This document shows, piece by piece, positions 9,001 to 12,000 of a stretch of DNA of 49,802 nucleotides. Source of the stretch: a virus (lineage: Duplodnaviria; Heunggongvirae; Uroviricota; Caudoviricetes); the IMG/VR virus record IMGVR_UViG_2541047795_000003, positions 1-49,802 of that record, one strand, 5' to 3'. The position numbers are program-made. Within the stretch, counting starts at the first letter, position 1. Every line of letters starts with the position of its first letter.

Positions 9001-12000
9001 GATTTTTTAACCCGACACCCTGACGCGGTTGTGTTCAGTGCGAAAAAACGCCAGTGGGGAAGTCAGGAAGATTTGGTGTGCGCACAGTGGATCTGGGGAC
9101 GAATCGTGAGTCTTTACGAGCAGGCGGCCAGCTATGATGGCGAGATCACTAGACCGAAAGAACCCAACTGGACAGCATGGGCCAATGACGTTCGCACAAT
9201 GCGGATGCTGGATGGCAGAACTCACAGACAAATTTGTGAAATGTTTGGGCGTCTCCAGCGGGATTCGTTCTGGGTAAAAAACATCATGAGTCCGGCAAAA
9301 CTCCGGGAAAAATGGGATGAACTGGTTATCCGCCTGGGGCGTTCGCCTGCGCAGCGTTGCGTGAATCACATTTCTGAACCGGACACTGAAATTCCGCCGG
9401 GCTTCAGGGGGTAAGTGTTAATTTCTGGTCATGAGGTAATTTTCAGGAGGGCTTGTGGCAAAAGTTTTTACACAAGAAGAGCGGGAAAAAATTAAAGGGC
9501 TGATCGTGGAATTCGTACGCCTTAACGGACGAGGCACGATTCGGCAGTTATCGGATGAAATTGGTGTCAGTCATGCGTCTGTCGGTCGTTTATGCATGGA
9601 GCTGGCCGCCAGTGGTGATGTTTACAATTCCGGTTACGGAGTATTCCCGTCTGAGCAGGCGCGCAAGGACTGGCAAAACGCCCGCAAAAAACTCTCAAGG
9701 GCAAAGCTGAAGAAACCATCTGTGGTTGATCCGGACCTTATCTGGCTATTACCAGACGGCGAAATACGCCGCTACGACAGGCGTCAGAACATAATCTGTC
9801 GCGAGTGCCGGAAGAGCGAAGTTATGCAGCGCATATTGTCGTTTTATCAGGGTAATTTTCAGGAGGTAGCGCAGTGAGTGCACCGGCAACCATTCTTGAT
9901 ATGTGCTGTGGCAGCCGCATGTTCTGGTTCGATAAGAATGACGACCGGGCGATATTTAGCGATATCAGAAAGGAAGAGCACACATTATGTGATGGACGAA
10001 GACTGATAATTAGCCCTGACCTGATAGCAGATTTTCGTGCATTACCATTTGCAGACGCATCGTTTCCGGTTGTTGTATTCGACCCTCCGCATCTTGAGCG
10101 TGTTGGTGATAACGCCTGGATGGGAAAGAAATATGGACGGCTGAATAAAGATACCTGGCGTGATGATTTGCGGCAGGGATTTAAAGAAGCCTTTCGTGTG
10201 TTGCGGCCATACAGCGTTCTGATTTTTAAATGGAATGAAACGCAAATACCTGTTCGCCAGATATTGGCACTGACCGACAGAAAGCCTGTTATCGGTCAAC
10301 GAACAGGAAAGGGTGACAAGACCCACTGGATTATTTTTATGAAGGAGGCGACCAGTGAGCAAGATTGACTATCAGGCACTGCGCGAGGCGGCGGAACAGG
10401 CAACGCAAGATGAATGGGTAGCATATATTTTGCCGGGTCATAACGGCATTTATCCTGCGCGCACGTCTGAGGGTAGGCATTGTGCGGATACTTTATTGAC
10501 TGGCCTGGCGTCTGTCAGGGGCGGGAGAGCATCAACATGAGCATCAGAACCTACGCAGTGAATTGCAATGACGCATGGCTAAACACCGAAGGTGATGACA
10601 TCTCCGGCTCATACGTTAAGTACAAAGACCATCAGGAAGTGGTTGCCGCTCTTGAGGCCAAGTGCGCGGCGCTGGCGGCGGAGAATGCGGTAATAAAGTC
10701 TGCAATTCCAGAACCACGGGATATTGAGGACGACAATGACAATATGGATGACGTATCTCTTGCTGAAGATTTCGGGTTCAATCATGCAATAGAACTGATG
10801 AGGAGACGGATTCCTGAAACTCCGGCCACCGATGCTTTCCTGGCTGAAGTACGGGCGCAGGGCGTGGATACAGCTATCGAGCACCTGCATAAGAAGTTTA
10901 AAGGAACTGTGCTTGTTGGCGTCCCGGTAATGGCGTTGGAGTATTTAGCCGCAGAGCTTCGCAAAGGAGGCAACCAGTGAGCGAAATTAATTACCAGGCA
11001 CTGCGTGAGGCAGCAGAACGTGCAATTCCAGCAATGGAACGCCTGTTAATGTTGCCAACTGATGATGATTTGTTAAGTGAACAGGAACTTAAAGATTACG
11101 GTGTGGATATTGATGCGCTCAATGCCTTCAAATTTCTGACCGGACCAGAAACCGTGCTGGCACTACTGGATGAACGGGAAAGGAACCAGCAATACATCAA
11201 ACGCCGCGACCAGGAGAACGAGGATATTGCGCTAACGGTAGGGAAGCTGAGAGTTGAGCTTGAGGAAGTAAAACAACACGCTGAAGAATTATCCGAAACC
11301 AAGGCTGTTCGTAACCAATGGCGGCCAGATATTTGCCCAATAACCGGACGTGCATTTTTCATGTGGATTGAGCATCCAACATTGGGGAATGTGCCGACAT
11401 ATGGTGGCCCATTAGATAGTTACACCATTCCAACAAAGGACGGTGACGGTGAGTTTTCATGTGAGCGTTACGATCATGATTTTGGCGGTTGGGTAGAAAG
11501 CGAATGTCTTGGGTTATATCTGATTGATGATAGAGAACAATGCAGGGTCTACGAACTGGAGGAACGCGTTAAGGAACTGGATGCTCGGGAAATATCGCTC
11601 CCGGAACGTAGCAGCATGCTTCATCGAACAGATTTTCACGATGATTACCAAACGGTAATGGCATACAAAGTTTCTGAAGTCATCGCTGCAATCCGCGCCG
11701 CTGGCATTCGCATCAAAGGAGAGTGATATGGCGTTAACACACCGCGAACTCTGTCAGATTGCGTACAAGTTCCTTAAGCGCAACGGGTTCAAGGTTTGCT
11801 TTCATGACCGCTTTGTTGCTGTAACCAGTACCGGAGAACAGCCAGATGCTATGGGATTCAGAAATTCAGCATCATGCCTGATAGAGGCGAAGTGTTCTCG
11901 TGCTGACTTGTTGGCAGATAGAAAAAAGCGTTTCCGTAAAAATCCCTCACTTGGCATGGGCGACTGGCGATTCTTTATTAGTGAGCCGGAAATTATTTCA

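Follow-up and report, generated by a model that had tools for sequence, protein, structure and literature searches.

The stretch analyzed here, hereafter the window, covers 49,802 nucleotides (nt), positions 1-49,802 of the IMG/VR virus record IMGVR_UViG_2541047795_000003, and is a Rac-like lambdoid E. coli prophage. Its open reading frame (ORF) 9874-10368 on the + strand is intact, starts with GTG and encodes a 164-residue protein that, on balance, is probably an orphan phage DNA amino-methyltransferase yielding N6-methyladenine (m6A) or N4-methylcytosine, with a catalytic core of ~155 residues. DNA is favored as the substrate because the family displays a selective homology to the beta-class DNA methyltransferases, has DNA methyltransferases as neighbors, and takes part in module fusions with them. 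The enzyme is considered an orphan because no cognate restriction endonuclease gene adjoins it: the neighboring genes encode a DUF977 protein and Ead/Ea22-like proteins, and PADLOC analysis of five neighboring ORFs did not return any hit. The family has already been catalogued and annotated (PHROG 954, PADLOC MTase_II), and the window copy is an ordinary member. The 914-bp stretch covering the DUF977 and methyltransferase genes (9455-10368) is 100% identical to that of strain Ecol_316, in which the prophage adjoins ompW, and 99.6% identical to that of the O104:H4 strain 2009EL-2071.

The preliminary description of this locus reported a 164-residue protein bearing the motifs ILDMCCGSRMF and VVVFDPPH, a GTG start overlapping the stop codon of a 140-residue ORF, and a 349-residue methyltransferase ORF at 18199-19248, all of which are present. 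The GTG start is backed by homologues whose N-terminus lies 5-6 residues before ILDM. Motif I of the class I methyltransferases is found in the LDMCCGS segment (residues 8-14), in which D9, C12, and G13 are conserved, together with an invariant acidic residue, D30, at the end of strand 2. The D70-P71-P72-H73 segment, the motif IV of amino-methyltransferases, is invariant along with D30 and C12 in 49 sequences reaching down to 40% identity, and also in 28 diverse sequences, and K119-W120 is likewise invariant across phyla. A Cys/His metal site (C11, C12, C39, H36) was considered and dropped, as C12 alone is invariant across the wider family.

None of the profile searches assigned the protein to a non-methyltransferase family. 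PHROG 954 ('DNA methyltransferase') returns a full-length match (E = 2.7e-87, residues 5-162), followed by the PADLOC models MTase_II (PDLC03288; E = 2.6e-73, residues 6-160 on a 169-position profile) and orphan-MTase (PDLC03730; E = 3.8e-49, end-to-end cover), both of which we take to be REBASE-derived. RefSeq names these proteins 'class I SAM-dependent methyltransferase' (SAM, S-adenosylmethionine) or 'TRM11 family methyltransferase'. Pfam contains no dedicated family for the 164-residue protein, and the Pfam search of the window protein was empty for PF05869 (phage Dam). The generic families Methyltransf_11 and Methyltransf_25 match 48 and 47 of the 49 family members (best E = 4e-10 and 4e-9, respectively), which bears out the earlier assignment to the SAM-dependent amino-methyltransferases, in a compact form where motif I precedes an invariant DPPH motif IV; the window protein itself scores below the Pfam thresholds with both, Methyltransf_25 being aligned from residue 7.

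A first line of evidence for DNA as the substrate comes from hhalign comparisons of the family profile with a panel of enzymes of known substrate or class. Three beta-class DNA methyltransferases stand out, YhdJ (probability 92.8%, E = 4e-7, 86 columns), the M.EcoGII-like enzyme encoded by this same prophage at 18199-19248 (90.5%, E = 1.3e-6), and SpSL1 cds16 (74.8%). PrmA, which modifies ribosomal protein L11, reaches 16.5% over 17 columns only, located at the motif I loop. The values are far lower for RlmJ (m6A in 23S ribosomal RNA (rRNA), 2.1%), RsmD (N2-methylguanine (m2G) in 16S rRNA, 1.7%), PrmC (release-factor glutamine, 1.2%), TrmN6 (m6A in transfer RNA (tRNA), 0.9%), the alpha-class DNA methyltransferase Dam (0.6%), the PF05869 proteins PamA and phiNP Dam (0.6% and 0.3%), RsmJ (m2G in 16S rRNA, 0.2%), and the PF00145 C5 (cytosine-5) methyltransferase of phiNP (0.1%). 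The aligned part pairs residues 34-130 with the N-terminal catalytic half of the beta-class enzymes over 51-86 columns, and spans a hairpin, the segment 'PD..DF..LPF.D.SF..VVFDPPH', a W-containing loop, 'FRVLRP', and the next strand. The likeness to N6/N4 DNA methyltransferases first noticed from the motifs hence extends to a homologous catalytic half. Weak PF01555 hits in 16 of the 49 members point the same way. A circular permutation relative to the beta class was also considered, and a second hhalign run of residues 1-45 against the beta-class C-terminus returned nothing significant. Since this N-terminal part fails to align, the protein is best described, as far as the sequences tell, as having a linear motif order and a beta-class-like catalytic half, permutation being unproven. 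SpSL1 cds16, reported in a pneumococcal phage as an 'N6 MTase with no detectable adenine methylation' (PMC6755750), was examined as a possible family member and rejected, as it is a beta-class enzyme.

An AlphaFold model built from the 49-sequence alignment (predicted local distance difference test (pLDDT) 92, predicted TM-score (pTM) 0.87) exhibits all seven strands expected of class I methyltransferases and a β-hairpin at residues 34-46. It possesses three helices only (residues 82-87, 95-109, and 127-131), compared with the helices A-E that sandwich the sheet in the canonical fold; all three are located past motif IV, with none between strands 1 and 4. Foldseek analysis against the PDB reports class I methyltransferases exclusively (TM-score ≤0.59), among which nucleomethylin, Trm11, Bud23, M.TaqI, and TrmM, and a BFVD structure search returned nothing further. 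The fold class is most likely that of the class I methyltransferases, and the substrate is not readable from the structure alone.

Gene neighbors and fusions in other phages provide a second and a third line of evidence, respectively. A scan of species-representative genomes yielded 80 phylum-diverse prophage loci, in which the PF00145 C5 DNA methyltransferase is the sole neighbor family found in more than six loci (18/80; eight members verified). A PF01555 beta-class neighbor occurs in four more of them and a PF05869 neighbor in two, and a C5 neighbor is also present in 15 of 80 viral loci. In the Gordonia phage Nymphadora, the C5 methyltransferase gene overlaps that of the small methyltransferase. 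An Alistipes putredinis prophage (positions 3-4477 of locus L104) carries a PF00145 C5 enzyme, a PF01555 beta-class enzyme, and the small enzyme within 4.5 kb on one strand, the last two adjacent, and is the extreme case of the methyltransferase islands in which the family tends to occur. Many enterobacterial members are 248 residues long, with a C-terminal module of ~85 residues (PHROG 16025) fused to the core. The same module ends two further, unrelated enzymes, the PF05869 Dam of Citrobacter phage phiNP and a PAPS-reductase-like protein of Salmonella phage ST64B, is free-standing in Klebsiella phage 5, and, in all but ST64B, lies directly 5' of a PF00145 C5 methyltransferase of 575-715 residues. 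This module sharing, together with the position before the C5 gene, means that the small enzyme and a known family of DNA adenine methyltransferases (PF05869) can replace each other in position, and the module may serve as an adaptor for the large methyltransferase. Both the module and the C5 methyltransferase are absent from the window. In phages Listeria A006, Enterococcus phiFL1A, and Vibrio K43b, the methyltransferase follows a replication initiator or a helicase loader.

The ORF is well beyond a chance reading frame, as its family is large: 7828 homologues were retrieved from a large collection of proteins, and clustering at 50% identity leaves 2020 representatives. The conserved unit covers ~155 residues, and the stand-alone form of 155-165 residues is the most frequent. 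N-terminal extensions of 50-150 residues, present in many database homologues, are mutually unrelated, so their interpretation as an extra domain was rejected; they are probably mis-called starts or fusions. The gene is present in 899 of 5426 complete E. coli genomes (~17%), and tblastn analysis identifies it in 254 phage genomes (38-66% identity outside enterobacteria), the hosts of which include Streptococcus, Vibrio, Acinetobacter, Porphyromonas, Listeria, Gordonia, Enterococcus, Lactobacillus, Staphylococcus pseudintermedius, Corynebacterium, Bacteroides, and Fusobacterium, along with one virus of the haloarchaeon Halorubrum. Temperate phages of at least five bacterial phyla have the gene, and the 80 species-representative loci are distributed among Bacteroidota, Firmicutes, Actinobacteria, Proteobacteria, Desulfobacterota, and Acidobacteria. 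The family appears restricted to prophage replication modules. Among 28 enterobacterial sequences, 73 columns are invariant, and the median ratio of nonsynonymous to synonymous substitution rates (dN/dS) is 0.07 (252 pairs), indicating purifying selection. Truncated copies ending at residue ~118 were also observed in 7 of the 80 viral loci, in prophage copies that are otherwise 85-95% identical (IMG/VR loci L049, L051, L052, L055, L070, L083, and L086; match at ~4001-4354), and the gene is decaying in some prophages that are probably cryptic.

In the window, a pR-like match upstream of the cro-like gene is the sole + strand promoter-like site 5' of the methyltransferase in the scanned region 6500-13500. 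No credible terminator was found between this site and the methyltransferase, and an internal promoter that might drive expression in the lysogen was sought over the same interval and not found. The site is presumed to be the source of an early-right transcript with the gene order cro-like, ydaT, O-like, DUF977, methyltransferase, and Ea22-like genes. Given this operon position without an intervening promoter or terminator, and the conserved placement after replication genes, the methyltransferase should be expressed early in the lytic cycle and kept off by repression in the lysogen. The second methyltransferase of the prophage, a 349-residue enzyme, is 97% identical to its O104:H4 prophage counterpart, and its gene is located between that of the Q antiterminator and two tRNA genes (19298-19457). 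M.EcoGII methylates adenine non-specifically and is silent in the lysogen (PMC5778455). The prophage appears to carry two enzymes, an early one that is minimal and a late one that is non-specific, and the initial observation of a second methyltransferase with an unlike architecture was correct. The accompanying statement that the two belong to different classes is accurate insofar as they are differently built, but they are not unrelated, as the hhalign match between their catalytic halves indicates. Regarding the two tRNA genes, ARAGORN reports tRNA-Met(CAT) and tRNA-Arg(TCG), and RefSeq calls the first tRNA-Ile; it is presumably a lysidine-modified Ile2-type tRNA.

If the protein is indeed a DNA methyltransferase, SAM would be held by D30 and D53 together with the motif I loop (LDMCCGS), D30 being invariant and located at the end of strand 2, and a flipped-out base would offer its exocyclic amine to the invariant DPPH loop that follows strand 4. 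Because a separate target-recognition domain (TRD) is missing, recognition would rely on elements of the core, namely the hairpin 34-46, the conserved basic loop 74-94 (KKYG), and the FKW/THW strands, which would imply a very short motif or no sequence specificity at all. The enzyme would be made immediately upon induction or infection, alongside the replication proteins, and would modify newly replicated phage DNA, and the M.EcoGI/II-type enzyme, encoded downstream of Q, would be produced late and complement it. The likely benefit would be an escape from host restriction. Whereas the motifs, the fold, the homology to the beta class, the gene context, and the purifying selection are observed, DNA as the substrate, the modified base, the timing of expression, and the anti-restriction or epigenetic role proposed earlier are inferred.

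Several observations weigh against this assignment. PF01555 matches 16 of the 49 members weakly (best E = 0.00097), its gathering threshold is reached by none of the 49, and the window protein returns no match with it. The N-terminal SAM-binding half has no similarity to the beta-class C-terminus detectable by hhalign, and the model is devoid of a TRD and of the canonical helices A-C. The best Foldseek matches are with generic or RNA-directed enzymes (nucleomethylin, Trm11, and Bud23; TM-score 0.51-0.59), ahead of M.TaqI and M.BceJIV (0.37-0.48). The cross-phylum identity of 50-65% is unusually high for a DNA methyltransferase, and would also fit a universally conserved non-DNA target. The literature searched yielded no study of the family and no activity data for any member. 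Lastly, the methyltransferases named in strain C227-11 (O104:H4) in the O111 methylome paper omit the 164-residue gene, and the same paper reports no additional methylated motifs in the O111 strain 95JB1; a copy 99.6% identical is carried by the second O104:H4 strain, 2009EL-2071. This methylome counter-evidence is weak, as a lysogen is not expected to express an early lytic gene. A bolder version of the proposal, which we consider only tentatively, sees the protein as a non-permuted, TRD-less relative of the beta class that methylates DNA, possibly single-stranded or replicating, with little or no specificity; a more radical one explains the near-universal conservation of the family by a conserved target other than DNA, e.g., rRNA or tRNA.

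Taken as an explanation in itself, an amino-methyltransferase acting on a non-DNA target seems unlikely. The target might be a universally conserved rRNA or tRNA base (m2G/m6A type), a glutamine in a protein, or a small molecule resembling a nucleotide, and the phage would use the enzyme to reprogram or shield host translation or to weaken a defense system. The unusually flat and high conservation of the family fits such a target, all 80 species-representative loci lying at 50-58% identity to the query and the E. coli and Gordonia phage copies sharing 64% identity, as does the lack of a TRD in the model. Trm11, an RsmD-like protein, TrmM, and Bud23 are among the top PDB hits by profile and by fold, and RefSeq sometimes uses the name of the TRM11 family; however, the Trm11 and RsmD-like profile matches are not significant (E = 0.07-0.4), and hhalign returns about 2% or less for RsmD, RlmJ, TrmN6, PrmC, and RsmJ, against 75-93% for the three beta-class enzymes. 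The co-occurrence with other DNA methyltransferases could be taken as a sign of non-redundancy, but DNA methyltransferases, and in no case RNA-modification genes, are the recurrent neighbors and fusion partners, in a family apparently limited to prophage replication modules.

Slightly less probable still is a DNA methyltransferase catalytic subunit that needs a partner, either another phage methyltransferase reached through the C-terminal module, a replication protein, the DUF977 protein, or a second copy of itself in a homodimer. Several beta-class methyltransferases act as dimers, and the absence of the helices that would cover one face of the sheet, as well as that of a TRD, would be accounted for by a partner. 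The module of the fused variants is tied to the following C5 methyltransferase, but a C5 gene is found in ~20% of the loci, the stand-alone form prevails, and the window contains neither the C5 enzyme nor the module. The translational coupling with DUF977, a probable winged helix-turn-helix (HTH) protein, is not conserved either: a DUF977 gene is near the methyltransferase in 12 of the 80 viral loci and in 1 of the 80 diverse genomic loci, so that no conserved partner emerges. Finally, a passively carried remnant, degenerate and catalytically dead, or a protein that binds SAM without transferring its methyl group (e.g., a SAM sponge), is very improbable, since the unusually trimmed fold, the H instead of the usual Y/F/W in motif IV, and the copies stopping at residue ~118 in 7 of 80 viral loci are countered by the low dN/dS, the invariance across phyla of DPPH, D30, K119-W120, and other residues, the thousands of intact copies, and a full-length window copy preceded by a strong Shine-Dalgarno sequence.

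The orphan DNA methyltransferase hence remains the favored assignment, and its upstream neighbor belongs to DUF977 (PF06163; E = 2.7e-31, 108.9 bits versus a cut-off of 22.1, residues 1-136 on a 134-position profile, full length). It also matches PHROG 142 (E = 2e-43), and phage records name it LygF or 'Ren-like exclusion protein'. Its residues 12-58 weakly match HTH_6, HTH_24, MarR_2, and IclR, and an NCBIfam GlpR-type HTH (E = 2.7e-4), making an N-terminal winged HTH probable on these profile matches. The gene occupies the slot directly after the replication initiator, the position of ren in lambda. DUF977 genes are present in 4066 of 5426 complete E. coli genomes versus 899 for the methyltransferase, and Klebsiella prophages have 3 kb between the two genes. 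The DUF977 protein as an obligate partner was rejected on the co-occurrence counts. With the low co-occurrence and the separation in Klebsiella, the association corresponds to local gene packing and not to a conserved functional pair: of the earlier claim that the methyltransferase is coupled to an HTH gene, the local translational overlap holds (the DUF977 stop TGA, 9875-9877, and the methyltransferase GTG at 9874 overlap as GTGA) and a conserved pairing does not. The DUF977 gene is bracketed by the two copies of a direct repeat of exactly 16 nt, GGTAATTTTCAGGAGG, the only ones in the window versus 0.01 expected by chance, and AGGAGG lies 7 nt 5' of both GTG starts. The repeat may represent a module-exchange joint or a duplicated translation-initiation block.

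Downstream, the first Ead/Ea22-like start overlaps the methyltransferase stop by 14 nt. This Ead/Ea22-like gene (10355-10980) consists of two ORFs of 61 and 147 residues here and in Ecol_316, and of one 228-residue ORF in the O104:H4 strain 2009EL-2071; the single ORF of the latter suggests that the split is a frameshift within this prophage lineage. A 171-residue ORF (11728-12243) is intact here, and RefSeq reports it as a frameshifted pseudogene in Ecol_316 and O104:H4. It matches PHROG 9263/631, of unknown function, and weakly a 'DNA repair protein' PHROG, while Pfam, NCBIfam, and PADLOC searches returned no match. The features of the locus are collected in Table 1.

Table 1. Features of the methyltransferase locus (window coordinates) and of loci encoding the PHROG 16025 module in other phages (coordinates of the locus named).
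Feature	Location	Strand	Basis or remark
pR-like promoter match, TTGACT-16-TATTCT	7686-7713	+	Consensus match; 5' of cro-like gene
Cro/YdaS-like gene	7739-8020	+	Early-right operon; for the block 7739-9414, Pfam YdaT_toxin and HTH_36, PHROG 163 and 391, RefSeq annotation of identical prophage
YdaT/CII-like gene	8004-8429	+	Same block
Replication initiator O-like gene with DnaT-like tail	8437-9414	+	Same block
Repeat copy 1, GGTAATTTTCAGGAGG	9435-9450	+	Exact 16 nt; carries Shine-Dalgarno for DUF977 GTG
DUF977 protein, 140 residues	9455-9877	+	PF06163
Repeat copy 2, GGTAATTTTCAGGAGG	9851-9866	+	Within 3' end of DUF977; carries Shine-Dalgarno for methyltransferase GTG
Putative minimal SAM-dependent amino-methyltransferase, 164 residues	9874-10368	+	PHROG 954; PADLOC MTase_II PDLC03288
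Motif I, ILDMCCGSRMF	9892-9924	+	Residues 7-17
Motif IV, VVVFDPPH	10069-10092	+	Residues 66-73
Ead/Ea22-like genes	10355-11726	+	PF13935; RefSeq annotation; directly 3' of methyltransferase
Beta-class DNA methyltransferase, 349 residues, M.EcoGI/M.EcoGII family	18199-19248	+	PF01555, E = 6e-44
PHROG 16025, Klebsiella aerogenes prophage	L012, 6001-6747		
PHROG 16025, Citrobacter phage phiNP	L009, 1820-2701		
PHROG 16025, Salmonella phage ST64B (sb44)	L010, 1802-2695		
PHROG 16025, Klebsiella phage 5	L011, 2998-3255		

The family is very common, and is of interest as no assay of any of its members was found in the literature. Its architecture is close to the minimum for a base-flipping amino-methyltransferase, as at 155 residues it lacks both a recognition domain and helices in its N-terminal half. 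The presence of a presumably early enzyme alongside a late, non-specific one of the M.EcoGII type suggests a staged protection of phage DNA. M.EcoGII and Hia5 serve in chromatin footprinting. Should the small enzyme be TRD-less and non-specific, it would be among the smallest autonomous DNA amino-methyltransferases, smaller than both, and possibly a compact tool enzyme; should it recognize a short motif, it would account for unassigned methylation in induced lysogens and phage methylomes. A conserved rRNA or tRNA target would instead make it a new type of phage takeover enzyme.

Among known systems, the PF05869 protein PamA of the S. aureus mosaic phage phi11 (141 residues, NPPY) is, like the 164-residue family, a tiny orphan phage enzyme encoded just 3' of replication genes. 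Their homology is not detectable (hhalign 0.3-0.6% for PF05869), and they differ in their motif IV residues and in the arrangement of the fold; considered as a homologue, PamA was rejected as a PF05869 protein with an hhalign value of 0.6%, and kept solely as a functional precedent. PamA (phage mPhi11) makes DNA DpnI-sensitive in vivo (PMC12435837), so small size is no objection to DNA methylation. PamA is thus experimentally supported, unlike the present family, known here from sequence and model. With the RNA amino-methyltransferases (RsmD, Trm11, TrmN6/TrmM, RlmJ), the family has in common the motif order I-IV, a small size, a DPP-aromatic loop, and the class I fold (TM-score 0.54-0.58), but these enzymes keep all Rossmann helices, most of them with an RNA-binding extension (THUMP etc.), and their profile similarity to the family is not significant. 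The generic class I families Methyltransf_11/25 share the 'LD.GCG' and 'LPF.D.SFD.V' segments with the N-terminal half of the family, but are normally devoid of the DPP(Y/H) amino-methyltransferase loop, present here as DPPH. The beta-class enzymes (PF01555; YhdJ, M.EcoGI/M.EcoGII) differ by their motif order, IV...VIII, TRD, X-I-II-III, compared with motif I (residues 7-15) followed by motif IV (residues 70-73) in the 164-residue protein, and by their size of 294-349 residues, about twice as large. They also possess a central TRD and, as compared with the AlphaFold model, helices A-C, whereas the small protein is devoid of both and ends ~85 residues past motif IV. Nonetheless, the beta class and the 164-residue family both occur in phages as orphan enzymes and share a homologous catalytic half, from the 'I-x-x-D...LP..S(F/V)D' pre-motif through the (D)PP(Y/H) loop and the W-loop to the 'RVLKP.G' helix and strand.

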